From a virus, in IMG/VR virus record IMGVR_UViG_3300045988_137103: a stretch of DNA of 64,000 bases; one strand, given 5' to 3'. The notes below the pieces were generated by a model that was given only the letters and a program-made list of their open reading frames with translations, had not been told where the DNA came from and made no database searches. Positions within the stretch are counted from its first letter, which is position 1; every line of letters begins with the position of its first letter. A program made the position numbers and the translations under genes. This document shows positions 16,001-60,802 of the stretch, one piece after another.

Positions 16001-19000
16001 CGATGGCTGATTCATCAACACCAGCCTTCTCTACCTCAGCCTTGCGCTCCTCCTTCATAGCTTTCACCTCATCAGGAGTCATCACACTGTTGCGGATAGT
16101 ATTCCAGTTCTTGAAACGAGCATCAAGATCTGCAATCTGCTCATTAACCAGACTCAACTCATCCTCCACCTTCTTAGCTTTTTCCGGGTCAAGATCGGAA
16201 TTGGTATCAAGCCAGTTCTGATATTCAATAGCAGCCTTTCTCTTGTTGGCAAGTTGCGTTTTGATGTCATCACGGCTGCCATTAACCAGATTCAAAAGTT
16301 TGCCATGGTCTTCCCCAAACTGCTCCTGAAGATACTCAGCCGCCACATTTGGATCTGTATCTTTAGAAGAATAGTCCGGCTGGCCCTCGCTCAGTCCCAC
16401 GATGCCATTGGCATAACGCTGTTTCTTATCAGCCTCAGCCTGAGAAACTGCTTTCTGCTCACGTTCATCGTCCTCGGCATCCAAATGCTCATTGATTGTG
16501 TTGTCGAGCGCATTCTTGCGCCATGCTGCAAACTCTTCTTTAGATAGGGGAAGATAATCTTTGCCATCAGTAAGTACAATCTTTCCGTCCTTGCTATATC
16601 CGGCAAAGGTCATATTGATATTAGCATCACCCTCCTCCATGGCAACTGTAACCTGGTCATTCGGCTTCAAACCGCTGCCATCAAACTGACTAATAAACTG
16701 CTGCGCTCTTGCATCCTTCTGCTGAGCCACCGCATTTTCGATGTATTCATCAAGAGAAACAGGAGTGCCTACCTCTTTAATCTCGGCATTAGATACCTGC
16801 TTAATCATAGGCTGTCCCTGCTCATCAGGAACGACAACAAAGGCTCCACCATATTCGTTAGCCTTCTTCAGGAAGACCTGTTTTCCGCTATCCAGAGTAG
16901 CTGACACGATGTTTCCGTCTTCCGTCTGGTATGGCCAGAGTTGCTGCTTCAACGCCTCACCATAGCCATCATCAGCATGCTGCAGAGCATCAATAGCACC
17001 CTTCTTGGCATCCATAGCCTCCACATACTTACTGATAGCCTCTTTCTGTGCCGGGGTCAGACTGGCACGCTGAGCCACAAACTGCTCCATATCTCTACCC
17101 TCATTATAGGCATTGGCTACAATATCAGGCATCTTCTCGTTATCAGCAAACGCTCGCTTCAAACGTCCTGTAGCTAAATCACTATTATAGTCGATAGCCT
17201 GCAAAGCCTCAGAATCCCCATTCTTATAGGCATTCTGTCCCATAACAAAAGCATCAGAGCTTGCAACCTTAGGCTCATTTCCTGCACCCTCAGCAGCAGA
17301 GTTTGCAGGGTTTGCAGCAACTTCTGCATCACTCGGAGTTGGTACGGAGTTGGTACGGTCTTGATATGGAGCAGGTTCCTCTGAAACTGGAGGCTCCTGA
17401 CCACTAGCAGAACCCTCTACAGAAGCAGGTCCCTCAACAGGAGTAGGTGGTTTTGCGCCATCAACATCGCCCTGCTCTATACGTTTTTTATCATCCTCTA
17501 TCTGCTTCATTTCACGTTTCAGTTCAATGGAATTGTAAAGCTCCTTAAGATAAGACTCAACCAAAGGCGCATATTTCTTATCTTTCGACTCCAAAGCCTT
17601 ACGAAGTGTACCGCGCGCCACGCCATGGGAATCCTCAAACGTGTTGACAAACTCCCTCATCACAGAACTATTCTCCAGAGCACTGTCATAATAATGACGG
17701 TAGGCGTTAACCTGCTTCTGCTCCTCATCAGTAAGGATTACACCCTTCTGCTGCTTATCCATGATCTCCTTGATGGCACCAGCATTCTGATGAAGATAAA
17801 CCGCTGCCTTATCCTCATCTGTCAATTTCTCACCCATATTATATTTCTGGGCTGCCTTGTTGTATAAGCCATCAAGATGCTCCTGCGTAAACTCATTGTG
17901 GAACTCACCTTCCAGCACAGAAGCCAAACCAAGAGTCTTATCATACTCCAGTTTCTTATCTGCTTTCTGAGCCTCATCAAGAGAAGAATACTCCTTTCTG
18001 TCAACAACACCGCCATCCTTGTTCAAAGTTTCGAGATAAACCTTGCCACCATTATCCATTGGTTGCACGATGATGGAATCTACAATAGGCGAGAAAGAAG
18101 AAGGTCGTTTGCCTTCTACAACTGCCATCATCTTAGCCTTCAACACCTCCGGAACACTCTTGTCGTTCATCAGGTCCATATACTTCTGGGTTAACTGCCC
18201 ATCAAGTCGCTGAGCATTCTCACCAACCATAGCATACTCCCCGATGCCCATCTTCTCAAAAGCATCACGAAGACCATCATAGCCGAATCTCTTCAACTCG
18301 GCAATATCCTGATCAGTGAAATCAAACTTCTTGTTAAACTCCCTTGCATCCTTGAATCGGGCATACTTGCCCACAAAACCAGGGAAACCAATAGACAAAA
18401 GATTAGCACCACTCTCCAAGAAAGTTTCAGCAGCATCCTTGCCAGTAGGCTTGAAATTCGGGTCGTGCGCCATACGCTCCAACAACTGCTGACCGGTCAT
18501 AATACCGGAATCCACAACCTTACCACCAATATCAGCCAGAATATTGGTAGCTAAGCCTCTGCCTTTACCTACCATGTTAGCGATTGTTCCACCCTGCATG
18601 ATAGCACCTACGGCACTCTGTTTAGCCACTTCGCCCAAAGTGTTGGCAATAACCTTACCCACGGAAGGATTGTAAATCTTGCCATTCTCATCGAACTGAC
18701 CTGTACGATAAATCTCATCAATAGGCTTCGAGATTGCAGACTGACCACCAAAGGTAACAGCACCATGCGCGGCTCCACCCTTCAAAGCCGCGGCCTTGCT
18801 CTTGCCGATAAGCACCTTGGCAGCTCGCTCAGCCATCTTGCGCTCCATACCCTTAGCCATGAGGTCACCAGCCAGTTTACCCTCTGCCTTGGCTACCATG
18901 CTCTTAGTCAACTTGCCACCTGCGGCTCCCGGCAGCCAATAACTCCAGGCATCACCTGCAAAGGTCAGAGCACCACTAGCTACGTTTTCCCAGAAGCCCG

Positions 19001-23039: not shown

Positions 23040-24542
23040 CTATTTTATGTCCCTGACTCGTTCAAAGTACTTCGTCTGGTCCTTGGTGATATTCTTCACC
23101 TTGATCTGTATCGTGCAGTTCTTAGGCACAGTATCATTTATGCTGGCCATGAGCTGCTCTATTATCTCATCTGTGTTCTTGTAGCCCTTGCCATCCACAT
23201 GAGCCACAACCTCGCCCATGAAGTAGGCATCAGCACAAAGTTCAAACGTCTCCTCGACCTTATCAAATTCAGGCACATGATACTCCTGCATTCGCCTGCT
23301 TGGATCATTGGTAAAGAAGACCTTCTCCACCACCTTCTCATTTAGTTCCCAAGCCCTAGAGAAATCTGGCTTCACATATCCGCTTGTTATCCTATGAGCT
23401 GTTGCATGATTCATAGCAAAGCCAATCTCTGCATAGTTGGCACCAATATCATTCTGGGCTACTGTGGCCCAAGTGTGCCGGAATGTATAAGGAGTATAAA
23501 AATTATCATCAGGCATACCCAAATAGTTCTTACAGATAGCTTTAATGAAATGTACCAAATTCGTATCCATAGAACGATTAGTGGAATACATTTTATGAAA
23601 AATAAATAGATAAGGGTCACTTTCCTCAGAAAAATATTTCTCCAAGGTTGGTAAAAGCATATCCGGCACCCTCATTTCTATATACGCTTTATCATAACGA
23701 CGCGTACTTGTTTTCTTTCTCTCATAGTGCAAGATTCCATCATAATAGTCCACCTTTTTCATTTTCATGAGGTCAGCTACATTGATGCCAGCCAAGCACA
23801 ATATCATCTTGCAAACATCCAGAGCCAACTGCTGCCGTGGATATTCAGGAGTAACGGCAAAAAACTTTCTACACTCCTCCAGCGATATGGCACGCTTGTG
23901 TGGACCTGCTTTTTTCTCTATCTTTATCTTATTCCAAGGATTGAATTTTATTGGCATAAGACCTGCCTCCTCATCATTAAATTTCTTGATACCTTCCAAA
24001 TAAATACGCTTAACCAAAGAAGGATAATAATTTCTGCTACTAGGCTTATTCTCCATGGTTTTCATCCATGCTGTCAGAAAACGTACAGTTAAGTGCGAAA
24101 ACATTACCTTATCAGTACCAGCAAAGTTTTCCAAATGTTTCAAAGCACTTTCATAAATTTGGCGTGATGAAGGCTGCAAAGAAAGTGATTGAAGATAAGA
24201 ACGAGCAAATTCAGAAAAACAAATATCCTGGGCAGAAGTCAAAAGGTAATCTCTAACCTTATAAACAGACCAGTCAGTTATATCAAGTCTGTTCAATTTG
24301 TCAACCCAGCCATTTATTTGGCTCATACAGGCTGCGAGCACGAATGAGTCCTTCACCTCTTTCGTGCCCTTAACCAATCCTTTGTCTGTTACAAACTTAT
24401 CGGTCTTAACTACCAACTTTTGACGGTTATGCAGTATTCTAATGTAAACTGGATAATAACCATCAGAACGTTTCTTTGAAACTACCACTTTAAATGTTGC
24501 CATATTACCATATTTTTTTGCAACTGTTTTGCAACATTGCAT
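23040..24542 (-). CDS. int: Tyrosine recombinase / phage integrase (Bacteroides type)
   Basis: N-terminal arm-binding-like MATFKVVVSKKRSDGYYPVYIRI. Catalytic-region motifs YERKKT, FRHTWAT and MNHATAHRITSGY. The start is more likely ATG at 24503 (MATFKV) than at 24542. About 110 extra residues follow the catalytic Tyr. Confidence 0.85.
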   Translation of the reverse strand: MQCCKTVAKKYGNMATFKVVVSKKRSDGYYPVYIRILHNRQKLVVKTDKFVTDKGLVKGTKEVKDSFVLAACMSQINGWVDKLNRLDITDWSVYKVRDYLLTSAQDICFSEFARSYLQSLSLQPSSRQIYESALKHLENFAGTDKVMFSHLTVRFLTAWMKTMENKPSSRNYYPSLVKRIYLEGIKKFNDEEAGLMPIKFNPWNKIKIEKKAGPHKRAISLEECRKFFAVTPEYPRQQLALDVCKMILCLAGINVADLMKMKKVDYYDGILHYERKKTSTRRYDKAYIEMRVPDMLLPTLEKYFSEESDPYLFIFHKMYSTNRSMDTNLVHFIKAICKNYLGMPDDNFYTPYTFRHTWATVAQNDIGANYAEIGFAMNHATAHRITSGYVKPDFSRAWELNEKVVEKVFFTNDPSRRMQEYHVPEFDKVEETFELCADAYFMGEVVAHVDGKGYKNTDEIIEQLMASINDTVPKNCTIQIKVKNITKDQTKYFERVRDIK

Positions 24543-47935: not shown

Positions 47936-48802
47936 TTACTGATAGCCACCTGCTACACCTGCGCCACATCCGCAACCGCCATTCATCAGATTGGCAAGGT
48001 AGATGTTCTGCTGCAACTGCGAGTTCTTAAACTTCAAGTCCTGAATCTCGTTAGCTTGCTCCTGGCTCCAATGACCTGTCAAGGTATCGATGATACGCTG
48101 GGTGTTGTTCTCACCTGCACGGATGATGTCACACTTGTCTTGCTGCATCTGGAAACCGAGGTTCGAAGCTGCTCTTTCTATACCAGTGTTGGTATAGCTA
48201 AAGCCCTGCTGCATCTGGTTAACGATGTCCTTCTGACCAAGCTGGTTGTCGTACCCCATCTTGATGATGTTCTGCTGCGTCTGGCAGCAGCAATCCTTCA
48301 ATGCTATGGTCATCTGCAAGTTACCCTGCGAGATAGCGTTAATTACTCGCTCTGCCGAGAATCCTACCTGACCGCCAAGCTGCTGGATGCCTGCCTGGAT
48401 GCCACAGATAGAGTTCTGCAAGGCGTTGAAGTCACAGTTCAGATTGCTTGCTAACATCTTAAGGTCGTTGCCATTACCCTGGATGGCACCCATCAGCAAG
48501 TTGCTGTTTTGGTTGTCTGCCATCTGGTTGCGCAAACTTTCAATTTGGCTCTGAATCTCCGCACGCTGTACGTCTGCACCGTTGTCACGATTGTTCCAGT
48601 CTGCACCATACATATAGCGCATCATGCCCATCATCATCATGTAGGCAAATGGATTGTTCCACATGTCGGCATCGTCACGGTCTCGCATCATAGCTGCCAT
48701 TGCCAAAGGATTGTTGTTGTCACGATTTGCCATCGCTCCAAGCAAACCACCCATCATTGCATCGTTGCAACAAGAGGTAGTCTTAATTACTTCTTCTGCC
48801 AT
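47936..48802 (-). CDS. Met/Asn/Gln/Cys-rich protein (288 aa)
   Basis: Unusual composition: AMMGGLLGAM, MMMMGMMRYMYG, CCCQTQQ and C-terminal GGCGCGAGVAGGYQ. A -7-like box TAACTTTG lies on the minus strand at 48865-48872. Confidence 0.65.
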   Translation of the reverse strand: MAEEVIKTTSCCNDAMMGGLLGAMANRDNNNPLAMAAMMRDRDDADMWNNPFAYMMMMGMMRYMYGADWNNRDNGADVQRAEIQSQIESLRNQMADNQNSNLLMGAIQGNGNDLKMLASNLNCDFNALQNSICGIQAGIQQLGGQVGFSAERVINAISQGNLQMTIALKDCCCQTQQNIIKMGYDNQLGQKDIVNQMQQGFSYTNTGIERAASNLGFQMQQDKCDIIRAGENNTQRIIDTLTGHWSQEQANEIQDLKFKNSQLQQNIYLANLMNGGCGCGAGVAGGYQ

Positions 48803-48958
48803 AATTCCTAAAGTAATAAAAGTTTTACATTTTGTTTATTAACACATGTAACCGATTACGGCAGCAAAGTTATCCCAAAATATCTACATGTTTCATAACT
48901 CTGTCAAACATTCTTTTAGTGGCTGAGTTCCAATGATTTAAGGTGACATAGACCCATA

Positions 48959-48989
48959 TCAAAAAAAGAGAAGCCTCATCAGCTTCTCT
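48959..48989 (-). terminator. Intrinsic terminator after the 49001-49183 gene
   Basis: On the minus strand, AGAGAAGC-(7-nt loop)-GCTTCTCT followed by a T7 run. Confidence 0.7.
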
Positions 48990-49000
48990 TCATTATTCTG

Positions 49001-49183
49001 TTATTTACCCATAAAATAAGTGATGATGGTTCCAGCAATCACTATCACATTGATAAATGTTAGCCACGCAAACAACCACTTCTTGCGTTTATAATCTCCT
49101 GTCCACCAAACAAAGATATTAAACGAAACGCTCAACATTATAATGATAGCACACTCTACAAATAAAAATGTTACCATATTCAT
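49001..49183 (-). CDS. Small membrane protein (60 aa, 2 TM)
   Basis: Two hydrophobic helices separated by a KRKK loop. Confidence 0.55.
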   Translation of the reverse strand: MNMVTFLFVECAIIIMLSVSFNIFVWWTGDYKRKKWLFAWLTFINVIVIAGTIITYFMGK

Positions 49184-49209
49184 ATCGCTTATCCGTGTTG
49201 CGATAGGGC

Positions 49210-49560
49210 TTAGTTCTTGTTTCTTTTCAGTCTTTTCTTGATAAACTCCTTAACGTCCCACTTCTTGAAGAAATGAGAATGATCCCCAGCGTTCCCCACG
49301 CTCTCCAGCTCCCCATCAGCGATAGCCCTTCTTAGGGTAGATTCGCTGATATGCGCCTCCTTCTTCACCTGTCCAGCAGTCATCATTGGGTTGAGAGCAT
49401 ACGGCAGATAGTTCTCACAAAGGTCTTCTATCTCATCGCTACTCATTCCGCAAGCAGTTACCTTCTCCCCTCTCTTCTCTTGCTCGTCTGCTCGAAAGCA
49501 AGAGTCAGACAACGATTTTAATAACACTCCCGCGGTGTGATAACCAAATAACTTTCCCAT
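49210..49560 (-). CDS. HTH DNA-binding protein (MerR/excisionase-like)
   Basis: MTAGQVKKEAHISESTLRRAIADGELESV...FFKKWDVKEFI fits the helix-turn-helix_17 / Xis-type pattern. Confidence 0.55.
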   Translation of the reverse strand: MGKLFGYHTAGVLLKSLSDSCFRADEQEKRGEKVTACGMSSDEIEDLCENYLPYALNPMMTAGQVKKEAHISESTLRRAIADGELESVGNAGDHSHFFKKWDVKEFIKKRLKRNKN

Positions 49561-49564
49561 ATCA

Positions 49565-50116
49565 TTATAATCTAGAGATTAAACTTTGACAGCCCTTGCC
49601 TGAGAAATACTTATCAGCAAACCCATATACATAAAATATAATGGTCATTACAAGTATTACAACATTAGCTTCCAACATTTCGTTGGTAGTAAAAACATTC
49701 CAATATACAATGTGTATAGCATTAATACCGAATAGGTATATAATCATAGGAATACGCCATCTGTAGCAGAGCCAGAAGAACCTACTTGCAAGTATAAGCA
49801 CAAGCGGATGGATGTAAACTGAGAAATATATAAATGCTGCCGATACCCAATTCTCCTTAAACCATACGCACATTTCTTTTTCATGAGACGCAAATGTTAC
49901 CATGCATGCAATATGAAAAAGCATGATAAACAGAGGCATCACTTCACAATAATACTTGAACCAAGTGAGTAGCTTCACGCTGTAGCCTCTACCTGCAAGG
50001 ATAATGACGTTAATCATTTCGCTAACGTCCATACCCTTAAACATTACTCTTGACAACTGTACTACACCGACTGATTGAACTAACCGATGGACTTCATCTT
50101 CTTCCTCTTTAGTCAT
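49565..50116 (-). CDS. Polytopic membrane protein (183 aa)
   Basis: Four to five hydrophobic helices. A -7 box TATTTTTG lies on the minus strand at 50191-50198. Confidence 0.6.
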   Translation of the reverse strand: MTKEEEDEVHRLVQSVGVVQLSRVMFKGMDVSEMINVIILAGRGYSVKLLTWFKYYCEVMPLFIMLFHIACMVTFASHEKEMCVWFKENWVSAAFIYFSVYIHPLVLILASRFFWLCYRWRIPMIIYLFGINAIHIVYWNVFTTNEMLEANVVILVMTIIFYVYGFADKYFSGKGCQSLISRL

Positions 50117-50434
50117 AAATTCTTCTCCTTTTGTTTTTGGGTTTATTATTTGTTCTTAGTTCCTCATTCTTAATAATAAGGAAAGTGCTGCAAAAATAAA
50201 CAATTCTGCACAAAAACATTCATTTTGTGCCATTTTTTATAGTTAAACTTTGCTAAAGTAACAATCCGTAAGCAGATATTAGCGGAGCTTACTAATAAAC
50301 ACACCATTTGATTGATTGATTGACACAGTTTTTTATGTAGTATTCAGATAGAGGTTATCTCTTCTACTATGTCGTTTCCTCTCATGTAAATTTCTACTAC
50401 CTTATGCTGGCTGATGATGCGACTGATTTCACTC

Positions 50435-51706
50435 TCACTTGGAATTTCGTTTAATATTTTTATTTGACGTTTCTCGTAATCCATAGTAATTATCCATTAA
50501 AAATTCGAAATCTCTGCTATTTTTCTTCTTTAGCAGCTTTCGATTAATCATATCTCTCTTGTATTTATTCTTTACGCAAACACATTCATAATGACCTTTG
50601 ATATAAAGATGTCTGTAAAATCTTAAATCCATTTCTAACATAACACACTTTCTGATCTCGTAGCTGTCGCAGTGTCTCATTAACCCAAGATAACTGTTGA
50701 TAGAGCAAATGTAATGTTGCAACTCCTCTATGCTATAGTTTTCGGGTAATGTGTTCATGTGATGTATCAATTGCTTAAAATTACTCACCATGCGGTTACT
50801 GGCATAAATTCTATCTCGTTTCACTACCATGCCTGTAAACTTGATTCCCTTGTATACGGATTGCAGCTCTATCTTCCTTGGATGTAAGGTCACACCTATA
50901 TTGGCAAGATATTTTCTTATTTTAGGCGCAGAAGCTAGTAATACTTGCTTATCCTGATGAATCAGGAAGAAATCGTCAACGTATCTACCATGATAATAGA
51001 TATGCAGAATTATTTCAAGCATCCAGTCAAAATCGTTAAGCCAGAAGTTGGCATCATGCTGGCTTGTAAGATTGCCGATAGGAAGACCGTGATTCTCCTT
51101 CGCCCCTCGCAAAGTTTTGCCTAGTGGTACTTTTGCCATAGATTCTTCAGAAGAACGCTTAATACAGTTCTTTGTCGGATCGTTCATTATTGTGACACGA
51201 GATAAGTAGCGCAAGTCTTCTATATCATCACCCTTGTAATTATCTACAATAAAAGCATCCACTTTATCAGCGAGTTCTGTTCTCGGAATACTCATAAAGA
51301 AGCCTTTCATGTCGCATTTCAAATACCAGCACGGCTTGGTAAAGTTCTCGGAACATTCTTTGATGTCTGCTGCAAGTTGTTTTACTCCATAGAGTTGACC
51401 CTTACCTGTGCGACAATTATATGTTCTATCACTAAACACTCCTTCAAACAAAGGTTCTAATCTGAGCGCAATATAATGATGGATAACTCTATCACGAAAA
51501 TTAGCAGCGAAAACCTCACGGTAAACAGGTCGAGAGACAACAAAGGTAATGGATGGCATCGGCTCATAAGTCCTGGAGTTTATCCTTTCAACCAAATCCG
51601 TTATATTTTCGAATAAGTACGTTTCAAACCTTATTGCATCTGGCGATGATGCCTTGCCTTTTCGGCAGTCTTCGTAGGCTGCCATTATATATTCTGCCTT
51701 TACCAT
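50435..51706 (-). CDS. DGR reverse transcriptase
   Basis: RT motifs including LPIGNLTSQ (the DGR-type motif 4) and GRYVDDFFLIH (YxDD). Lies 31 nt downstream of TR. Confidence 0.9.
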   Translation of the reverse strand: MVKAEYIMAAYEDCRKGKASSPDAIRFETYLFENITDLVERINSRTYEPMPSITFVVSRPVYREVFAANFRDRVIHHYIALRLEPLFEGVFSDRTYNCRTGKGQLYGVKQLAADIKECSENFTKPCWYLKCDMKGFFMSIPRTELADKVDAFIVDNYKGDDIEDLRYLSRVTIMNDPTKNCIKRSSEESMAKVPLGKTLRGAKENHGLPIGNLTSQHDANFWLNDFDWMLEIILHIYYHGRYVDDFFLIHQDKQVLLASAPKIRKYLANIGVTLHPRKIELQSVYKGIKFTGMVVKRDRIYASNRMVSNFKQLIHHMNTLPENYSIEELQHYICSINSYLGLMRHCDSYEIRKCVMLEMDLRFYRHLYIKGHYECVCVKNKYKRDMINRKLLKKKNSRDFEFLMDNYYGLRETSNKNIKRNSK

Positions 51707-51737
51707 TACTATTATCTCCCTAACTCTCCTAACTAGT

Positions 51738-51864
51738 GCTGTAACAGGACGAACCCGATTCGAATTGTCAACCTTACCGTTGTTGTTCCGATTGCCATTC
51801 GAGAAATTCAGATTCCACGCATTCGTGCCAGAATTCTCAACGCACGACCAGTAATTCGTCCGCT
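51738..51864 (-). repeat. DGR template repeat (TR), 127 nt
   Basis: Gap-free alignment to 52503-52629. All 15 mismatches are T on the plus strand in TR, which is A on the coding strand. TR carries 12 AAY codons. Confidence 0.9.
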
Positions 51865-52015
51865 ATTTTCTCGCTCTTTATTATACATCTTAGCTGCTTC
51901 GCTACACCGAACAAATGATGATGCGACTTGACAGCAGCGAGACCATTATTTATGGAGAATCACATTCTATAATAAGCCTTGACCTAATTATACTCTAGCT
52001 TTATTCGAAGAAGGA

Positions 52016-52363
52016 CTAACCTTTCTTCGAATTTCCCCAAGCTGTAGCCTGTCTACCGATGGCGGTTGTCAGTCTGCAAATATCAGCAGCTTGCTTCTCT
52101 GAGAATAATTTCCTCTTGAAGCAAAGGCGAAGGACAGTTTTGAGGAGTTCGAATTTTACTCGGAATCCCATCATATACTGATGCCTGTTATCCGCATACA
52201 TATTCGCTAGCTGGATGTACTCGAAAAGTTCAAGAGCAACGCTTGTCATTTTCTCACCCAAATCGTAACGATACATTCTCGGAAAGCTAACCTTCATCGC
52301 GGTGAGTTTATCGACCAATTCAAACGTATCTTTATATATTTGTAAATCCTTCGCTAATGCCAT
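52016..52363 (-). CDS. avd: DGR accessory variability determinant (four-helix-bundle protein)
   Basis: 115-aa basic helical protein lying between the target gene and TR. LQIYKDTFELV...FPRMYRYDLGEKM fits the Avd / 23S-rRNA-IVS protein family pattern. Confidence 0.75.
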   Translation of the reverse strand: MALAKDLQIYKDTFELVDKLTAMKVSFPRMYRYDLGEKMTSVALELFEYIQLANMYADNRHQYMMGFRVKFELLKTVLRLCFKRKLFSEKQAADICRLTTAIGRQATAWGNSKKG

Positions 52364-52449
52364 AGATATTCCAGCTTATTGCCACTAATTATTCGTGATA
52401 TTGTTATTATTTATATGTTCGTATCTCTCTATCTCTTAACCTTGCTTGA

Positions 52450-52464
52450 CCGACCTGCGGTCGG
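52450..52464 (-). promoter_or_regulatory. GC-rich hairpin 38 nt downstream of VR
   Basis: CCGACC-TGC-GGTCGG, a 6-bp stem and 3-nt loop. It has no U-tract on the minus strand. Confidence 0.35.
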
Positions 52465-52495
52465 AAAGAGATAAAGAGGTGAAGAGATAAAATGA

Positions 52496-53272
52496 TTAAA
52501 ATGCTGTAACAGGACGAACCCGATACGAAGTGTCAACCTTACCGTCGTAGCTCCGATTGCCAGTCGAGAAACCCAGACCCCACGCACGCGTGCCAGAACC
52601 CTCAACGCACGACCAGTAATACGTCCGCTGCAAGAGTGATACAGACTGCTTTCCAGCATCCCTGATACGCTGTAGGGCGAGATTGATAGTCTCGAAGTGC
52701 TGATGGATGAGAGATAAATCTCCCATCGTTGGCAACCACCAGTGATGCTTGCCAATCTGGCATATCTTGCTACCTTCAGCACGCTTCGTCATATAGTTCC
52801 AGCAGTATGCAACCGCATACGTTGCAGGATCATCGTTCTTATAGTAGCTGCTCGCCATGACGCCAGCAGTACGTGTTGCACCATCGAAGGTATTCATGTC
52901 GCCTGATGTCTGATACCCGACAGAGCTGCTATTCTGCACGCTTCCCCATTTCATCGCTGCCGACGGCTCAGTCAGAGCAATACCCAGTCTGTAGCCACCA
53001 TGCTGGATAACGATAGCATCAGCATCGGCAGATGAAATGCCAATTGATGTTGTCTGCCATGGTTCTATGCGCATGTACGAGCCGATATTGTCGGTATCGC
53101 CTCCGCTCTGCGTTCCCCATCCGTCATTCTGTATCTTACCGATATACACTCCATCCTGCAAAGGACGAAGGTTCTGATTAAGATAAGCCTGCATGCTTGC
53201 CTTGCTTGCGTTCGTGACCGCTTCTCCGTTCTGAGATAGCCAGTCACTCATTCTTTTTGTTTTTATTCCCAT
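52496..53272 (-). CDS. DGR variable (target) protein, DUF1566/C-type-lectin-fold-like
   Basis: VR occupies the last 42 codons (...YYWSCVEGSGTRAWGLGFSTGNRSYDGKVDTSYRVRPVTAF). HHWWLPTMGDLSLI resembles the W-x-LPT motif of DUF1566. Confidence 0.85.
   Translation of the reverse strand: MGIKTKRMSDWLSQNGEAVTNASKASMQAYLNQNLRPLQDGVYIGKIQNDGWGTQSGGDTDNIGSYMRIEPWQTTSIGISSADADAIVIQHGGYRLGIALTEPSAAMKWGSVQNSSSVGYQTSGDMNTFDGATRTAGVMASSYYKNDDPATYAVAYCWNYMTKRAEGSKICQIGKHHWWLPTMGDLSLIHQHFETINLALQRIRDAGKQSVSLLQRTYYWSCVEGSGTRAWGLGFSTGNRSYDGKVDTSYRVRPVTAF
52503..52629 (-). repeat. DGR variable repeat (VR), 127 nt
   Basis: Identical to TR except at 15 TR-adenine positions. The 3' end (coding sense), CGGGTTCGTCCTGTTACAGC, is invariant and is IMH-like. 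Confidence 0.9.
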
Positions 53273-53290
53273 TTTACTTCTGTGTTTATA

Positions 53291-54457
53291 TTAACTAATT
53301 TCATCACTGGCATCTACCAGAAAATTCAAATCCTTTGCACTACAAATTGATATGTCAAATTCAGCCTCTGTGCTGACGAAATTACCAGACATACCAATGT
53401 AACCACAATTAAACCGTATTTGATTTGATGTTTTGTTTATCCATATCAATCTTCCAATTCTAGGAGTAATATTAACAATAGCATCCCCAGCAGCACCATT
53501 AAACCATTGTGATGGTAATGTAAGCGTGTATTCTCCTCTATCATCATAGGTGATACTCATTTTTCGATTGTCGAATGTTAGCTGACTCATCGTTACAGTA
53601 CCGGTATCTTTTATTTGCTTTCCTGTTATATGAGCATAAGCAAGAACATGTGAACTGTGTCCGTACAGGTATTGCGTCCCAATATAGGCTCTATTGAGTA
53701 CTATCCATCCATAGAAGGTGTCTGGGGTTCCATATCCCAGCAATTCTACAGCTTCCCTAGATATAACTAGTTTTTTCTTCTTCACACCGTCCTCGTAGAA
53801 ATAACATCCATCTGGGGCACTAATAGTTCCATACATATCGGCATATTCTCCATTCCAAAGATAGTTGACAAGTGTGACTCTACGACCACTCTGATTGGTA
53901 GTCCACTTAATGCTGAAGTTGTTGCCAAAAATATGGTTCCATCCAGATTCATCTGAAATAAGAGCAACATTGTCGCTATAATCAATATCCGTAGACGATG
54001 ACGCTAAAGTGAAAGGCACTCTTGTGGATCCTGTTATCTTTACATTTTCAAAATTACCACTCTTGCACACAATTCCATCTTTATCCGCCTTGAGAAGAAC
54101 ATTACCATTTCCTTCACCTTGGTCTGTGATAAGGATATTGTCAACACCAAGGTTATGGATATACGCCTTCCGTGCAAGGAATAGTCCAGTTGCAAGCCGC
54201 TTGTAGTCTGTGATAGGCTTGAAATAAATCGTGTTCGTAGGTACGACACCATTTCCCTTCACGAATGATCTGATGCACTGGTAAATGTTATCTCCATACA
54301 GAACAATGTCAATCCACTGCTCATCTCCTGTACCTGATTCTATTGCGGATCCATCGGGGATGTCTTCCCAAGGGCGAGGGCGTTCTGTTGCGCCCTTCGC
54401 TCCTTTTTCTATCTCTGCAATAGATCCAGTCGTTGTTGCTAAGATATTACTTCCCAT
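53291..54457 (-). CDS. Tail fibre / receptor-binding candidate (388 aa)
   Basis: Beta-rich with beta-helix-like repeats (GNGNVLLKADKDGIVCKSGNFENVKITG). Lies directly upstream of the DGR target. Confidence 0.55.
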   Translation of the reverse strand: MGSNILATTTGSIAEIEKGAKGATERPRPWEDIPDGSAIESGTGDEQWIDIVLYGDNIYQCIRSFVKGNGVVPTNTIYFKPITDYKRLATGLFLARKAYIHNLGVDNILITDQGEGNGNVLLKADKDGIVCKSGNFENVKITGSTRVPFTLASSSTDIDYSDNVALISDESGWNHIFGNNFSIKWTTNQSGRRVTLVNYLWNGEYADMYGTISAPDGCYFYEDGVKKKKLVISREAVELLGYGTPDTFYGWIVLNRAYIGTQYLYGHSSHVLAYAHITGKQIKDTGTVTMSQLTFDNRKMSITYDDRGEYTLTLPSQWFNGAAGDAIVNITPRIGRLIWINKTSNQIRFNCGYIGMSGNFVSTEAEFDISICSAKDLNFLVDASDEIS

Positions 54458-54460
54458 AGG

Positions 54461-55564
54461 CTAATCTGATGTTTGAATAATATAGGTTGCTCCACCATGA
54501 CCAACAATCATTTCGCTAGTAACCTCAAAGGTTTCTGCAGGAGTTTCGAACTTCTGCAGCGAAACACCGGCATTGTCGTAAATCCACATCTTGAACTTTT
54601 GATTTTTGACGGTATTACGTACACCATTATCATTATACCAGAGAATAGGCTTGTAGTAGATGGTCTTTCCATCTCCTCGGGTAAACTGCTCCACTGTAGG
54701 GAATCCGTTTTCGTCACAAGGGTTTGCGTGAATATTATAAGGGTCGGAAGCATCATTTACAGTCTGCACGTCCTGACCATACAAGTCGTCATTCTTATAT
54801 ACTTCTACTTTAACCAAAGCAGATGAATTTACCTGAGACTCCAATATCGTGAATACATCAGATGTTTCTGTCTGTAGGGTCCATGCTCCACTTTCTTCAA
54901 TATACCATTTAAATGTATATCCAAGACCTGCGGCAGATTTGTTATCAACCTGTGCCCGAAGTTTACAAGTTCCGTTCTTTGTGCGAATGGTAAAATAATT
55001 AGTATCACCTGCAACAATCGTTACCATCTTGGTGTTTTCTGTTCCAAGGGTAATTGATACCTGGTATGCACTTGATAGTTTAACAGAAGAGTTAACAACG
55101 GAAACATCTGCCTCACCTCTAATAAGGAAGGAATTGCATCCGTTCACCTTTACAAGGTTTTTATTTACTTGCAAAGCTTGAACTTTAATGTAGCCACTTT
55201 CAGCGTCACCAATCTGCTGCGTTGTCTTTGTGAAATGACCAGTATCCCCACCGAAGGTGTTTTTCGATACTCCCTGCGAATCAAACAGGATTTCAGTAGT
55301 ACCAATAAACCAGTGCATGTTAGCATTTTCTATGGATGCGAGACCATTTCCACTACCAACCTCGGAAGAGTAGGCCAGAAAAACTAACATAGGCTTGGTT
55401 ACTCCACTGGCTTCAAAGTCAGGAGCAATATTTGTGGGCGCATCAGCATCACCAAGATATGTTTGATATAAGTCACCTAATTGACATTGTATAACGGTAT
55501 AGAAAGTAGTACCATTGCTTACAACGGTAATCTGTCCGGTTGTAGACGCTTTTGCATTAACCAT
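54461..55564 (-). CDS. Tail-associated beta-rich protein (367 aa)
   Basis: Ig-like, beta-sandwich-type composition in the co-oriented structural block. Confidence 0.5.
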   Translation of the reverse strand: MVNAKASTTGQITVVSNGTTFYTVIQCQLGDLYQTYLGDADAPTNIAPDFEASGVTKPMLVFLAYSSEVGSGNGLASIENANMHWFIGTTEILFDSQGVSKNTFGGDTGHFTKTTQQIGDAESGYIKVQALQVNKNLVKVNGCNSFLIRGEADVSVVNSSVKLSSAYQVSITLGTENTKMVTIVAGDTNYFTIRTKNGTCKLRAQVDNKSAAGLGYTFKWYIEESGAWTLQTETSDVFTILESQVNSSALVKVEVYKNDDLYGQDVQTVNDASDPYNIHANPCDENGFPTVEQFTRGDGKTIYYKPILWYNDNGVRNTVKNQKFKMWIYDNAGVSLQKFETPAETFEVTSEMIVGHGGATYIIQTSD

Positions 55565-55847
55565 TATTCACCTCGCTTTCCTTTTTAGCAGCATCCTCTT
55601 TTACCTCATCAGGGTCATAGCACTTTGCTGGATTTTCTGTAGTACCATCAATCTCCATACGAGCCTGCTCTGGGGTGAGGAGTGCACCACCGACTTTCTC
55701 TGCACGTTCACTAAGTGTAAGCCCAGTCACACCATTCAAGTCGCTTTGAAACAAAATAATGTTTCCATCAGCACTTTTTGTGCCAGTTACGAAAGAAGGA
55801 AGAATCCTCTTCTTCACCTCTGGCTTAACTTTTACATAATATGCCAT
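55557..55847 (-). CDS. Hypothetical structural-block protein (96 aa)
   Basis: ATG ORF overlapping the downstream start by 8 nt. Confidence 0.55.
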   Translation of the reverse strand: MAYYVKVKPEVKKRILPSFVTGTKSADGNIILFQSDLNGVTGLTLSERAEKVGGALLTPEQARMEIDGTTENPAKCYDPDEVKEDAAKKESEVNNG

Positions 55848-55864
55848 ACTGAATTATATTTAGA

Positions 55865-57082
55865 TTAAACAATTACTGGCTTTTCAATGATTCTAGCATC
55901 TTCATCTACGAGATAGCTGCCTTCATCGTCAACCATAGCTGCGGTAGCACCACGATCACATATCTCCAGTTGAACAAACTTAGCCTTATCTGCTTCTACA
56001 GAAATTTCAGCTCCAGTACCGATGAGAGTTTTGGTTGTTGAAATGCTACCATCACTATTCCTGGCAGAAGTACAGATATACCAATTAGCGAAAGCTATGC
56101 TCTCCCAATTAGGTATCTCACCTTGCGTGTCAGAGACTATCGCTTTCAAAAGAATATTCACGTTACCGGTTACCCTTGCATTGGAATTGGTGAACATTGC
56201 TCTGATTGGAGGAAAACATCTTATGAGGGTAGTAGATGCAACAGGATCACCCGGCTCTGGTTCAGACGGAAGATTTCCATCTGTTCTGTAAGCACACTTA
56301 ACTTCATAGGTGATTTCCTCTCCCATTTTATCGCGGTCTACTGTGATAGACTTAATCTGACCATTTTCCCCAGTCGTAGCAGATGTTATCTCCCAGTTTT
56401 CTTCATCATCTACGCTAGTGATTAGTTTCTTGGTCTTATCGTTCATTACTCGATACCAGAAAATCTTTACCTTTGTGCTTTCCGTCATATTATGCGAGCC
56501 TACCATTACCAATGCTTTAATTGTTCTGGTAGGCTGTTGACGGAAGGGGTTCCATTTATCGGTGTTAGGCATATCAAGAGTTATGGAAGCTCTGGCATCC
56601 GTAACATCTTCTAGTACCAAAGGAATATCCTTTGTAAACCTGTAAGAATATCCGCTAACGGAATCCTCCCATGTGCCTACAAAACGAAGCGTTCTTCTTA
56701 CGCCCACAACAGCGTTGGAACTGACGGTTATCTGTCCCTTGCTATCACCTGATACGACAACCTGATAACCTTCCTTTGTACTTCCACTCTGCGTGGCAAT
56801 TTCAGTCTGTCCCGATGATGTAACCTCAATCCATCTGAACGAAGCGAGGGAAGAGTTTACCATGATAGACGAGACAGGGCTATCTGGGTCTATAAGTTGG
56901 CATTCAGGGAATACCACCAGATTAGAAGTGCTGTAGTCTGGTGTATAGAGATTGGTAACCGCATCATAAGTCTGGCGGTTAACTGTATTAGTCCTTACAA
57001 CCATGTTGCAGCATTGATGATAGCATACCGGCTGAATGTCTATCTTCTTTTGTTCTGACTGCGCTAAAATATTATTTGCCAT
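55865..57082 (-). CDS. Tail-associated beta-rich protein (405 aa)
   Basis: Beta-sandwich-like composition in the structural block. Confidence 0.5.
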   Translation of the reverse strand: MANNILAQSEQKKIDIQPVCYHQCCNMVVRTNTVNRQTYDAVTNLYTPDYSTSNLVVFPECQLIDPDSPVSSIMVNSSLASFRWIEVTSSGQTEIATQSGSTKEGYQVVVSGDSKGQITVSSNAVVGVRRTLRFVGTWEDSVSGYSYRFTKDIPLVLEDVTDARASITLDMPNTDKWNPFRQQPTRTIKALVMVGSHNMTESTKVKIFWYRVMNDKTKKLITSVDDEENWEITSATTGENGQIKSITVDRDKMGEEITYEVKCAYRTDGNLPSEPEPGDPVASTTLIRCFPPIRAMFTNSNARVTGNVNILLKAIVSDTQGEIPNWESIAFANWYICTSARNSDGSISTTKTLIGTGAEISVEADKAKFVQLEICDRGATAAMVDDEGSYLVDEDARIIEKPVIV

Positions 57083-59221: not shown

Positions 59222-60802
59222 TTACGCTGCCTCCAAAATCTGCTCATCTGTAACGCCATCACCAGTGAAGACTGGGCGGGCTACACGCGCATGAGCATCA
59301 GGGAAGGTCAGTACCCAGCAGCTATACTCCTCCATCACAACACCTGCAGTATTACGAATCAAGAGATCCTTGGCGTTAAACTCGTTTCTGCTCCATACAC
59401 CAAATACGTATTTGTCAAGATAACGAGCATCCAGCAAGAACGCTCTACCATCCATACCCCAGGAGTTAAAAGCATCGTGACGATAAATCAGTATCTTTGT
59501 ACCCATGCTCTCGAACTTCTCAAAATCAAGTTTCCATCCCTGATAATCCTTTTCGGTCTGTGTAATGATGCGCTTATTAGAACGAAGATTTGCAAATGCC
59601 TGATAAATCAAGTTGTCAACGAAGAGAAGTTTCGTACGGCTGGAGTTACCAGCACCCTTCAATACTGCTGCAATAAAAGCAGAAAGTTCCTTCTCGCTGA
59701 TCACATACTCATATACTGTTTTTTCCTGCTCTACAGTTTCGCCATCGGAACCACCTGGCTTAGGTACTTTTACCTTTGCCTTTACAATTTCACCATTCTC
59801 ATCTTTCTTGACAGCCCAATGGCCAATCTGCAAGTCCTTGCCTGCTTCCCAGTAAATACCGCCCATGGTATAGGTCAAACCAACTTTCTCGCCACCATTC
59901 GACATGCTCTTTACACCGAACAGACCACTTCGCTCCTGGCCATAACGCATATCGTCCATAGCCATTTTTTCCTGTCGTGTGAAGTCCCATTTTACCTGAG
60001 TCTTACTCATGCGGTTGATAAGAGACTCCTCAACCTGCATGATAAATCGCTGGCAATACTGGAAACTCTTATCTGGCATAGAGTAATAACTACCAGTTTC
60101 AACCTCTTTCTCGCCTGCGGCTCTTCCGAGGCGCATCAGAGTTGTACCTACCGGAATATTGTCTTCAAAGTCACGGTTGCCACGCGAAGGGTTTTTCTTT
60201 CCATTCAGAGCGTAGGCAATAGGGTTATTGTCATTATCATGGCTGATTACACGGAACTGAAGAGGAATCAAAGTGCTCTTGTTTGTACCAGTCTCGTCAT
60301 AGCCATAGATGCCATCTACCATAATAACATCACCATTATCGAAAGCTGCCGGATTCTCCACGATGAAAGTTACAGAGTTACCATTGGTCTGCTTATTAAC
60401 CTGAGTAGTAAGTTTTGACATGATAGGCTTCTGACCGATAGAATAGTATTCTACTCGAACAGAGTCGATAGGAGTCATCTTCTTGGATGCACGTAAAATC
60501 TGATCAATAGGACAACTCTCCAGTTTCATCTCTACGACTGTTGGGTTAACGTGAGCAACATAGTAATCCCAGTTACCCATAGCTTCCTGCTGCTCCTGGC
60601 TACCACCCTGCCACTGAGGACCAGAGCCACCTACACCGGGACCATCCAAAGGACCTGTCGCACCACCGCCACCTGCACCAGCAGGAATACCACCACCTGG
60701 TACAGGTGGAGCCGTTTCAGCCATTGCATAAGAACTTCCACCACTAAGGATCATGACGAGCACCGCCATCATGAAACCAAACCATTTCTTAAACTGTTTC
60801 AT
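59222..60802 (-). CDS. Major capsid protein candidate (526 aa) with an atypical signal-peptide-like, Gly-rich N-terminus
   Basis: Position directly after a scaffold-like gene, and a size compatible with an HK97-fold capsid protein. The first 75 aa are a hydrophobic helix followed by G/P-rich low complexity. Confidence 0.55.
   Translation of the reverse strand: MKQFKKWFGFMMAVLVMILSGGSSYAMAETAPPVPGGGIPAGAGGGGATGPLDGPGVGGSGPQWQGGSQEQQEAMGNWDYYVAHVNPTVVEMKLESCPIDQILRASKKMTPIDSVRVEYYSIGQKPIMSKLTTQVNKQTNGNSVTFIVENPAAFDNGDVIMVDGIYGYDETGTNKSTLIPLQFRVISHDNDNNPIAYALNGKKNPSRGNRDFEDNIPVGTTLMRLGRAAGEKEVETGSYYSMPDKSFQYCQRFIMQVEESLINRMSKTQVKWDFTRQEKMAMDDMRYGQERSGLFGVKSMSNGGEKVGLTYTMGGIYWEAGKDLQIGHWAVKKDENGEIVKAKVKVPKPGGSDGETVEQEKTVYEYVISEKELSAFIAAVLKGAGNSSRTKLLFVDNLIYQAFANLRSNKRIITQTEKDYQGWKLDFEKFESMGTKILIYRHDAFNSWGMDGRAFLLDARYLDKYVFGVWSRNEFNAKDLLIRNTAGVVMEEYSCWVLTFPDAHARVARPVFTGDGVTDEQILEAA

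Follow-up and report, generated by a model that had tools for sequence, protein, structure and literature searches.

A very probably functional diversity-generating retroelement with a lectin-like target in a temperate phage, apparently of Prevotella/Segatella copri

The locus described here lies in a window of 64 kb, i.e., the whole stretch of viral DNA that was analysed, and raises the question of whether two similar repeats beside a reverse transcriptase (RT) gene constitute a working diversity-generating retroelement (DGR) and, if so, which protein is diversified. On the minus strand, which is the coding one, a template repeat (TR; 51737..51864) and a variable repeat (VR; 52502..52629), the latter spanning the final ~43 codons of the target gene, aligned without gaps over 128 nt with a start-to-start spacing of 765, and all 15 mismatches were found at TR adenines. 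Given 35 adenines in the 128 nt of TR, the hypergeometric probability that 15 mismatches would all fall on A is 2.5e-10. TR carries 12 AAY codons in the frame of the target, 11 of which are altered in VR (N to Y, G, R, G, G, T, S, Y, D, T, Y). An earlier note on this DNA had described an ungapped 127-nt repeat pair with 15 mismatches, every one at a TR adenine of the coding strand, and changes in 11 of the 12 AAY codons; our realignment returned the same count, the same gapless pairing, no mismatch outside adenines, and the same list of residues, while the length had to be corrected to 128 nt. A search of both strands of the 64-kb window yielded no second VR. The bias also extended to 32 related loci, with 425 TR/VR mismatches at adenine sites vs 32 elsewhere, and 23 of these loci had mismatches at adenines only.

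Two such segments of 128 nt might have arisen by ordinary duplication followed by point mutation, with the nearby RT being an unrelated retron, group II, or defence enzyme. Weak sub-threshold matches of the RT to group II, retron, and DRT/UG families could be read in this way, though they are expected for any RT, and this explanation is contradicted by the adenine bias both in the window and in the 32 related loci, as well as by the identity of the neighbouring genes. The RT gene (50435..51706, minus strand), whose start codon is located 31 nt after TR, encodes 423 amino acids with LPIGNLTSQ and YVDD(F) motifs and matched the profiles RVT_1 (1.3e-18) and phrog_1423 (1.6e-80). Its best relative in the PDB was Brt of BPP-1 (8ub7_A, E 1.5e-19), whose E-value was 15 orders of magnitude below that of a group II maturase (3.5e-4), and the closest RTs among cultured phages were those of the Bacteroides uniformis DGR phages F2, F4, and F1 (44-48% identity). 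The curated group II, retron, and DRT cut-offs of the NCBIfam and PADLOC models were all unreached, and an assignment to the group II, retron, or DRT/UG families was rejected as sub-threshold generic similarity (e.g., 75.6 bits for group II vs a cut-off of 300). Judging by its motifs ([ILV]GxxxSQ as motif 4, and YxDD) and database matches, the RT belongs to the DGR clade and is more closely related to Brt than it is to group II, retron, or DRT enzymes. The adjoining gene (52016..52363, minus strand) encodes a 115-aa accessory variability determinant (Avd) that passed the cut-off of 40 for Pfam bAvd (1.8e-13, 51.4 bits) and matched phrog_3206, "Avd protein of DGR" (1.2e-20), while it scored 42.7 bits with NCBIfam DivGenRetAVD (NF033474), short of the cut-off of 80. 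Both protein assignments made previously from the letters of the sequence, namely a DGR-type RT with IGNLTSQ and YVDDF motifs and an Avd-like protein beside TR and RT, were thereby borne out, and the order on the minus strand is target, Avd, TR, and RT. The adenine bias, the presence of Avd, and the relationship with Brt together refute an ordinary duplication, to which we assign a negligible probability. A consensus scan of the 318 nt that follow the RT gene also indicated a terminator-like hairpin (50208..50230, minus strand), and this weak evidence suggests that the DGR transcription unit may end there.

Whether the retroelement still operates can be judged from its natural variation. Over 3164 nt, two public contigs from two samples (L039 and L040) shared 99.3% identity with the window, and 18 of the 21 differences were located in VR, every one of the 18 at a TR-A site, as the earlier note had anticipated for VR polymorphism. 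No differences were found in TR (100% identical), avd, or the RT gene of these contigs. Another contig (L042) showed one difference in 2034 nt, again in VR and at a TR-A site. Among 96 homologues, entropy amounted to 2.81 bits at the 12 AAY-templated codons vs 0.20 elsewhere. Since L039, L040, and L042 differ from the window almost only at TR-A sites of VR, homing would be more recent than nearly all other mutations, and the DGR looks active, as far as differences between public assemblies can tell; near-isogenic natural variants point to recent activity without read mapping. The same data bear on the possibility that the cassette is a recently inactivated relic, in which homing has stopped and an old adenine pattern persists. 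Signs of decay or stalling do occur in some relatives, with 11 non-A mismatches in L002, a G in TR where VR retains an A in L010 and L023, and a loss of TR adenines in L026 and L003. In the window lineage, however, RT and Avd are intact and non-A mismatches are zero, and contigs sharing 99.3-99.95% identity with the window vary almost exclusively at the TR-A positions of VR, so that we consider a relic very improbable.

The target of the retroelement is a protein of 258 amino acids (ORF 52496..53272, minus strand), with helices at the N-terminus ahead of a beta-rich, C-type-lectin-like (Lcl_C/DUF1566) body; its translation confirmed the WWLPT motif. Residues 168-255 matched Pfam Lcl_C with an E-value of 1.4e-6 and 29 bits, which is below the gathering cut-off of 34.9; PF07603 was found precomputed on most homologues. 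No Mtd family match was obtained in Pfam, and a comparison with the PDB by sequence alone gave nothing meaningful (a Fab chain, E 0.09). An AF2 model, calculated from a 131-sequence alignment for which the homologue search had been seeded with the most divergent locus (L030), had a pLDDT of 87.6 and a pTM of 0.83, whereas the use of 96 close homologues (84-95% identity) instead resulted in a pLDDT of only 31. In a Foldseek search with this model, the top PDB match was the C-terminal domain of Legionella Lcl (8q4e_A, E 4.4e-4), followed among solved structures by a Bacteroides type V pilin (4eps, E 1.2e-3, TMq 0.40, 202 columns), and snake-venom C-type lectin-like proteins, the carbohydrate-recognition domain of the mannose receptor, and InvE were also retrieved; TM-scores against solved structures were modest (TMq 0.25-0.40). 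Both the sub-threshold Lcl_C match and the similarity of the model to the Lcl C-terminal domain and to C-type-lectin-like folds agree with the DUF1566/CLec type proposed before for this protein, and VR is, in terms of the predicted fold, the C-terminal part of a C-type-lectin-like (DUF1566/Lcl_C) domain; in DGR targets generally, the variable domain has a C-type-lectin or an Ig fold and is mostly C-terminal. Hypervariation at the 12 AAY-templated residues corresponds to ~15^12 = 1.3e14 protein variants, to which a few other A-containing codons add. This target class, DUF1566/CLec2, is category "d", exemplified by Legionella LdtA (Wu 2018, PMC5758913), and the protein family forms >1100 clusters at 90% identity in public metagenomes.

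The neighbourhood indicates where such a protein might act. The target gene shares its strand with the tail genes, and 18 nt separate its start from the gene upstream (53291..54457, minus strand), which encodes a fibre-like protein of 388 amino acids that had no family match in Pfam, PHROG, or NCBIfam. Residues 1-144 of this protein were 92% identical to its L039 counterpart and the remainder was unrelated. Phages that are otherwise almost the same carry exchanged C-terminal parts of this protein, in the manner of modular fibres or receptor-binding proteins. Next to it are two paralogous "tail protein" genes (54461-55564 and 55865-57082, minus strand) with a small ORF between them, which matched phrog_3267 (3.7e-11 and 6.4e-15), the tail label being the name of that PHROG family only. 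The phage, which encodes an integrase at 23040-24542, is temperate. Its host appears to be Prevotella/Segatella copri. Relatives reside in Prevotella and Segatella copri genomes, including the complete genome of the isolate S. copri G8, in which the related prophage lies at around 3.10-3.12 Mb of NZ_CP146523.1. When positions 48000-56000 were compared with deposited phages by megablast, MT836190 alone matched, over 0.9 kb and outside the DGR, and a literature search for an earlier account of a DGR in a Prevotella/Segatella prophage yielded nothing specific.

Most likely, the target belongs to the virion, where it would occupy the end of the tail/fibre module and bind a ligand on the host surface, as its modelled fold and its neighbourhood suggest. 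A different role for a genuine DGR would be the diversification of a protein made in the lysogen or during infection, e.g., a pilus-tip-like host adhesin or a factor of phage-host conflict. This is consistent with the temperate lifestyle, with the second-best solved match of the target being the type V pilin 4eps, with the grouping of similar pilin-fold variable proteins ("domain group 1"), 70% of which are prophage-encoded (10.1101/2024.11.15.621889), and with the precedent of Quimbyvirus, the second DGR target of which is non-structural (Benler 2021, PMC8008677); the target is, moreover, short, stand-alone, and encoded last in the structural block. On the other hand, its first 30 residues are hydrophilic, and as no signal peptide or lipobox could be read in its sequence, it is unlikely to be exported to the cell surface. 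The shared strand and the distance of only 18 nt to the fibre-like gene also argue for a structural protein, as does the outcome of a comparison with phage proteins, in which Foldseek matched the target to DUF1566 proteins and tail-fibre C-termini (E down to 5.7e-10); its whole fold recurs as the C-terminus of proteins annotated as phage tail fibre, peptidase S74, or collagen-repeat fibre. We regard a role outside the virion as unlikely, and a location in the tail module is preferred.

How VR is recognised as the recipient was approached through the sequences at and after the 3' end of the repeats. The last 22 nt of VR (52502..52523, minus strand; TCGGGTTCGTCCTGTTACAGCA) form an IMH-like segment with a GC-rich start, which is the same in TR and the adenines of which were never seen mutated. 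The 3' ends of TR and VR match up to the last shared base, and no difference between IMH and IMH* was found. Identical IMH and IMH* are known in some DGRs, for which recognition was inferred to extend downstream (Wu 2018, PMC5758913); such identity is a variant among DGRs and does not exclude the locus from them. A GC-rich hairpin, CCGACC-GCA-GGTCGG (52450..52464, minus strand), is located 38 nt after the last base shared by TR and VR, and has no counterpart after TR; it is the candidate target-recognition hairpin or cruciform. In an alignment of 24 loci (A2), 98.6% of its cells were paired, with compensatory changes in one pair (AU/UA/GC/CG) and in another (CG/UA); none of 500 shuffles reached its score and slid controls gave 9-49%. 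Its loop reads GTTA, GTA, TTGT, CCCTAAA, or ATTTAG in other lineages. The hairpin is surrounded by an extended imperfect stem (52425..52478, minus strand), the 5' arm of which is rich in pyrimidines and the 3' arm in purines. Its DNA folding z-scores ranged between -2.4 and -3.8 in seven divergent lineages, the arm sequences of which differ; this stem is missing from the L014/L016/L019-L022 lineage, and its support is weaker than that of the apical hairpin. A GC-rich inverted repeat downstream of VR occurs in only 34% of DGRs (Wu 2018, PMC5758913), and the pattern described for BPP-1-type phage DGRs consists of a 7-10 bp stem, a 4-nt GRNA loop, and a distance of 4-34 bp after VR (PMC3240598). 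With its 6-bp stem, non-GRNA 3-nt loop, and distance of 38 nt, the present hairpin departs from that pattern in all three respects, and its role is for this reason ascribed by analogy. Recognition of VR probably involves the shared 22-nt GC-rich segment together with the hairpin, and because the 3' ends of the repeats are identical, it is the hairpin that probably marks the recipient.

A second structured element was found 5' of TR. The avd-TR spacer (51869..51999, minus strand) folds into an RNA with two hairpin domains, closed by UCUCGC/GCGAGA directly 5' of TR. It comprises 30 pairs (98.8% paired), with compensatory changes in 15 of them; none of 500 shuffles equalled it and slid controls were at 31-51%. 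A covariance model of this RNA (R1) matched five loci outside its training set (L029 and L035-L038) with 110-181 bits and gave no match at E up to 1 in F2, F4, and BS-TP1, which are more distant Bacteroides phage DGRs. RNAalifold gave no conserved structure in 180 nt 3' of TR (-1.0 kcal/mol, four invariant pairs), an analysis that non-covarying structure within coding sequence would escape. Two long-range pairings proposed by the same program, GAUUCU/GGAAUC inside TR and one between the avd-stop region and the TR 3' end, had no compensatory change and were rejected. Rfam contained no known RNA family matching positions 49000-54000, apart from a chance snoRNA match (E 0.24).

It is possible, though rather doubtful, that the RNA organising the RT-Avd RNP is permuted with respect to BPP-1, with the structure 5' of TR as the equivalent of Sp, the hairpin alone discriminating between the repeats, and erosion of TR adenines as the cost. 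The 5' RNA may then include an element that positions or primes cDNA synthesis. Avd, spacer, TR, and RT are spaced alike in the B. uniformis phage DGRs, where the same permutation may occur. As the TR and VR 3' ends are identical, only the hairpin, irrespective of its loop, would distinguish the donor from the recipient, and the occasional loss of TR adenines (L026, L003, and L010/L023) would be the price of weak discrimination.

We therefore consider it highly probable that the locus is a functional DGR of a temperate Prevotella/Segatella phage that diversifies a lectin-fold tail-module protein by mutagenic retrohoming. The anatomy of TR and VR, the identities of the proteins, the fold, the covariation of hairpin and RNA, and the adenine-restricted natural polymorphism of VR support this. 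By analogy with BPP-1, a transcript spanning the structured avd-TR spacer and TR would be bound by the RT-Avd complex, reverse transcription of TR would then begin at its 3' end and place random nucleotides opposite adenines, and the resulting cDNA would take the place of VR in the 3'-terminal part of the target gene. The DGR belongs to a kind that is already common and well catalogued in gut phages, so its existence as such is unsurprising. Few phages of Prevotella/Segatella have been characterised, and this DGR family is very abundant, while the relative in S. copri G8 provides an experimental handle. The 5' RNA, the identical TR/VR 3' ends, and the hairpin with its variable loop constitute a natural test of which BPP-1 features are general, i.e., the position of Sp, the difference between IMH and IMH*, and the GRNA loop.

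Among known systems, Quimbyvirus and Hankyphage (Benler 2018, 2021) are likewise temperate phages of gut Bacteroidota, abundant in the gut, with a structural DGR target just downstream of tail-fibre genes. Unlike the frameshifted RT of Quimbyvirus, that of the window is a single intact ORF, and compared with this set the window has one VR only. The "domain group 1" variable proteins of Bacteroides (type V pilin-like, 4EPS/4QB7/5NF4; 10.1101/2024.11.15.621889) resemble the target via the fold match to 4eps and belong to another host than Prevotella/Segatella. LdtA of Legionella pneumophila has the same VR-bearing class, DUF1566/Lcl_C (CLec2), and about half of category "d" proteins are short and essentially domain only, like the present target (Wu 2018, PMC5758913); LdtA is, however, a chromosomal or ICE-borne surface lipoprotein, whereas our target has no lipobox and lies in a phage tail module. 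The canonical BPP-1-type layout ascribed to this locus in the earlier note stood as regards gene order (mtd-avd-TR-brt), and the likeness extends to A-to-N mutagenesis, the pair of Avd and RT, the position of VR at the C-terminus of a lectin-fold tail-module protein, and a GC-rich hairpin present after VR and missing after TR. It did not stand for the target class (Mtd in BPP-1, DUF1566/CLec2 here), for IMH and IMH*, which differ in BPP-1 and are identical here, for the hairpin, the loop of which is GRNA in BPP-1 and non-GRNA and variable between lineages here, or for the side of the structured RNA: the 140-nt structured spacer (Sp) of BPP-1 is 3' of TR (PMC6182149; 10.1101/2023.10.23.563531), where BPP-1-type DGRs in the narrow sense also have an Avd-binding stem-loop, whereas the RNA described here is 5' and the TR-RT gap is 31 nt. 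The RTs also differ in length (328 aa in BPP-1 vs 423 aa). Nearest among cultured phages by RT are B. uniformis F1, F2, and F4 (Hedzet et al. 2021, PMC8143477; records MT806186, MT806185, and MT635598), which have another phage backbone and another host genus. In F2 the hairpin after VR is canonical (8 bp, GAAA loop), whereas in the window a GCA loop caps a 6-bp stem that is itself part of a longer pyrimidine/purine stem. These phages nevertheless have the same order of a ~250-aa target, avd, a ~125-150-nt spacer, TR, ~30 nt, and RT, a TR 3' end similar to that of the window (GTTCGCCCCGTTTCAGCA), and the same adenine bias, with TR/VR mismatches at A in 13 of 13 cases in F2 and 13 of 14 in F4.

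Re-alignment of the two repeats of the diversity-generating retroelement (DGR) delimited a template repeat (TR, 51737-51864) and a variable repeat (VR, 52502-52629), both on the minus strand, 128 nt long, ungapped with respect to each other and with starts 765 nt apart, which bears out the positions proposed in an earlier note on this DNA to within one base. That note had also claimed that the mismatches were adenine-specific, and TR indeed carried A on the coding strand at all 15 of the 15 mismatched positions (hypergeometric probability 2.5e-10, with 35 A in 128 nt). TR contains 12 AAY codons in the frame of the target gene, 11 of which were changed in VR, asparagine being replaced in turn by Y, G, R, G, G, T, S, Y, D, T and Y, the same series as had been listed before. 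When the entire window was scanned on both strands with adenine mismatches tolerated, no second VR emerged. The claimed gene order was likewise confirmed on the minus strand: the target gene (52496-53272, 258 aa), the gene for the accessory variability determinant (Avd; 52016-52363, 115 aa), a 151-nt spacer, TR, 31 nt, and the reverse transcriptase (RT) gene (50435-51706, 423 aa). The protein described as Avd-like matched Pfam bAvd with 51.4 bits (cut-off, 40 bits) and the PHROG family "Avd protein of DGR", while its score was under the NCBIfam equivalog cut-off. The RT, taken from its motifs to be of the DGR type, carries LPIGNLTSQ and YVDD and matched RVT_1 (1.3e-18) and phrog_1423 (1.6e-80). 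Its closest relative of solved structure was 8ub7_A (E 1.5e-19), a chain verified as Brt of Bordetella phage BPP-1, followed by a Cas6-RT-Cas1 fusion (9e-6) and a group II maturase (3.5e-4), and among cultured phages the nearest RTs (44-48% identity) came from three DGR phages of Bacteroides uniformis, F2, F4 and F1. A group II, retron or Drt identity was rejected, as the curated models of these types all scored far under their cut-offs.

The DUF1566/CLec fold suggested earlier for the target was recovered from both sequence and predicted structure. Residues 168-255 matched Lcl_C/DUF1566 (1.4e-6) with a score slightly below the gathering cut-off, and this domain is precomputed for most target homologues. 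AF2 prediction on 96 near-identical homologues gave a pLDDT of 31; before the second run, the alignment was widened with two further lineages found via a divergent seed, and the resulting model had a pLDDT of 87.6 and a pTM of 0.83. A Foldseek search of this model against the PDB returned first the C-terminal domain of Legionella Lcl (8q4e_A, E 4.4e-4) and second a type V pilin of Bacteroides ovatus (4eps, E 1.2e-3, TMq 0.40 over 202 columns), with C-type-lectin-like snake-venom proteins, InvE and the carbohydrate-recognition domain of the mannose receptor among the lower matches. Among predicted viral structures, the model matched phage "DUF1566 domain-containing" proteins and the C-terminal ends of long proteins whose annotation is tail fibre, peptidase-S74 or collagen-repeat protein (E down to 5.7e-10). 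These matches assign the target to category "d" (DUF1566/CLec2) of DGR targets, whose exemplar is Legionella LdtA (Wu et al. 2018, PMC5758913), and put it close to "domain group 1", the pilin-fold group of variable proteins from Bacteroides DGRs, of which prophages encode 70% (10.1101/2024.11.15.621889). Inspection of the first 30 residues, which are hydrophilic, indicated neither a signal peptide nor a lipobox.

Evidence of activity was sought by comparing public assemblies. The protein P0004 differed from the target at 12 residues, 11 of them at AAY-templated codons and one at another A-containing codon. The two near-isogenic contigs encoding it (L039 and L040, from two sequencing runs) showed 21 differences from the window over 3164 nt, from the target through the RT; 18 of these fell in the 128-nt VR, all 18 where TR has A, and TR, avd and RT were identical to those of the window. 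Contig L042 had a single difference in 2034 nt, in VR at a TR-A site. Related loci from IMG/VR and GTDB genomes, 32 in all, showed 425 TR/VR mismatches at adenines vs 32 elsewhere; the mismatches were adenine-only in 23 loci, and no two VRs were alike. In the 96-homologue alignment, mean column entropy was 2.81 bits at the 12 AAY positions vs 0.20 elsewhere. These natural variants provide strong evidence that this complete DGR was recently active. Some relatives (L026, L003, L010/L023, L012 and L013, with TR at ~5843-5970) have lost TR adenines: L026 deviates from the consensus at 11 A sites and its sister loci, L025 and L027, at 1-2, and in L010 and L023 TR has G at sites where VR keeps A. 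This suggests that TR itself is occasionally subject to mutagenic homing or to conversion by VR, which agrees with the identical 3' ends of TR and VR. In another relative, L002 (VR 5079-5206, TR 5843-5970), VR differs from the TR of its own cassette at 11 non-adenine positions and looks like a TR from a different lineage (L016/L019 type); this cassette appears to be a recombinant without homing after the recombination.

The last 22 nt common to TR and VR (TCGGGTTCGTCCTGTTACAGCA) have a GC-rich start and adenines that are unmutated in every locus, so that the segment looks like an IMH. Since the 3' ends of TR and VR are identical, there is no IMH/IMH* distinction, as in some other DGRs, for which recognition was inferred to extend downstream (Wu 2018, PMC5758913). 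Downstream of VR, starting 38 nt after the last shared base, we found a hairpin, CCGACC-GCA-GGTCGG (52464-52450, minus strand), whose six pairs were 98.6% intact in 24 distinct relatives, with compensatory changes at one pair (AU/UA/GC/CG) and at another (CG/UA); its covariation score was reached by 0 of 500 shuffles, and sliding the partner strand lowered pairing to 9-49%. In most lineages it lies within a longer imperfect stem (DNA folding z -2.4 to -3.8), whose 5' arm is rich in pyrimidines and whose 3' arm is rich in purines. Loci L014, L016 and L019-L022 form a lineage without the purine arm, in which another hairpin, a very strong one (AGTCTGGCGGC...GCCGCCAGACT), lies instead ~70-105 nt after VR and the VR-to-TR interval is ~95 nt longer. 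In BPP-1, a hairpin/cruciform is required for efficient homing, and phage DGR hairpins were described as having 7-10 bp stems, a GRNA tetraloop and a position 4-34 bp from VR (Guo et al. 2011, PMC3240598). Unlike these, the hairpin here has a 6-bp stem and a GCA loop, which varies by lineage (GTTA, GTA, TTGT, CCCTAAA, ATTTAG), whereas the hairpin of Bacteroides phage F2 is a canonical 8-bp stem with GAAA. No comparable structure was found in the 180 nt following TR. The hairpin probably marks VR as the recipient. Two independent metagenome contigs (L041 and L042) end 36 nt past the stop codon of the target, inside this hairpin (window ~52460); the assemblies may have broken at the palindrome or at heterogeneous sequence downstream.

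A second conserved structure, an RNA at 51869-51999 (minus strand), occupies the avd-TR spacer and has its counterpart at ~5700-5850 in the related loci L001-L038. Its two hairpin domains are closed, right next to TR, by UCUCGC/GCGAGA, and it has 30 pairs (98.8% paired), with compensatory changes at 15 of them; 0 of 500 shuffles reached the observed values, and slid controls gave 31-51% pairing. A covariance model built from 18 sequences detected it in five relatives outside the model set (110-181 bits) and had no match in F2, F4 and BS-TP1, Bacteroides phages that are more distantly related. F2 and F4 have the same avd-spacer-TR-30 nt-RT spacing. In BPP-1, the structured RNA that is essential (Sp, 140 nt) is located on the 3' side of TR and wraps around the RT, and Handa et al. 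identified putative Avd-binding stem-loops shortly after TR in 207 of 278 DGRs that contain Avd. The arrangement here is the opposite, with the covarying RNA 5' of TR and no conserved structure 3' of it in the 180 nt examined (the 31-nt gap and the start of the RT gene). That the Sp equivalent sits 5' of TR in this DGR clade is a tentative and rather doubtful reading, because a non-covarying structure may lie inside the RT coding sequence.

The window makes up the greater part of a temperate phage, with an integrase (23040-24542), a portal (1199-3256) and an SU10-type/DUF5309 major capsid protein (59222-60802) that is 30-33% identical to those of temperate Bacteroides phages. Two paralogous phrog_3267 "tail proteins" are encoded upstream of the target and on its strand, as is a 388-aa gene directly adjacent to the target (53291-54457, minus strand). 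Compared with L039 (5024-5995), the N-terminal 144 aa of this gene product are 92% identical and the C-terminal part is unrelated, while the contig is otherwise 96.5-99.3% identical; this is the pattern expected of a putative modular fibre or receptor-binding protein, and this module swapping adjoins the DGR-driven variation. The host is likely Prevotella/Segatella, since relatives of the RT were found in a Prevotella sp. MAG (L035, 90% identity) and in an isolate with a complete chromosome, Segatella copri G8 (L036, NZ_CP146523.1, 3103826-3117091; 82%), both related prophages with intact DGRs, the latter with 14 TR/VR mismatches, adenine-only. Within 48000-56000, the only similarity to a deposited phage at the nucleotide level is to MT836190.1 (human faeces, 94.3% identity), at 49381-50277, which spans an HTH gene and a membrane-protein gene downstream of the DGR. 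Adjoining the portal gene on its upstream side, a single 5476-aa ORF (4098-20528, minus strand) with InPase (1.7e-50), C-5 cytosine DNA methylase (5.4e-27), LPD23 and sub-threshold PBECR2 nuclease domains looks like a giant "polyvalent protein". A 288-aa ORF (47936-48802, minus strand), unusually rich in Met, Asn, Gly and Gln and with a C-terminal Cys/Gly run, matched only phrog_16490 (function not assigned).

Taken together, the TR/VR anatomy, the RT, the Avd, the target fold and the A-site variation of VR support the earlier reading of the locus as a complete DGR. The protein that it diversifies has a lectin fold and closes the tail module. As DGRs with targets of the DUF1566 or pilin fold are a familiar and common feature of gut phages (PMC8143477, PMC8008677, 10.1101/2024.11.15.621889), it joins an already known type. 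It departs from the BPP-1 paradigm in its 5' structured RNA, its identical TR and VR 3' ends and its loop-variable hairpin, and these three features, whose functional roles are putative, merit specialist attention.
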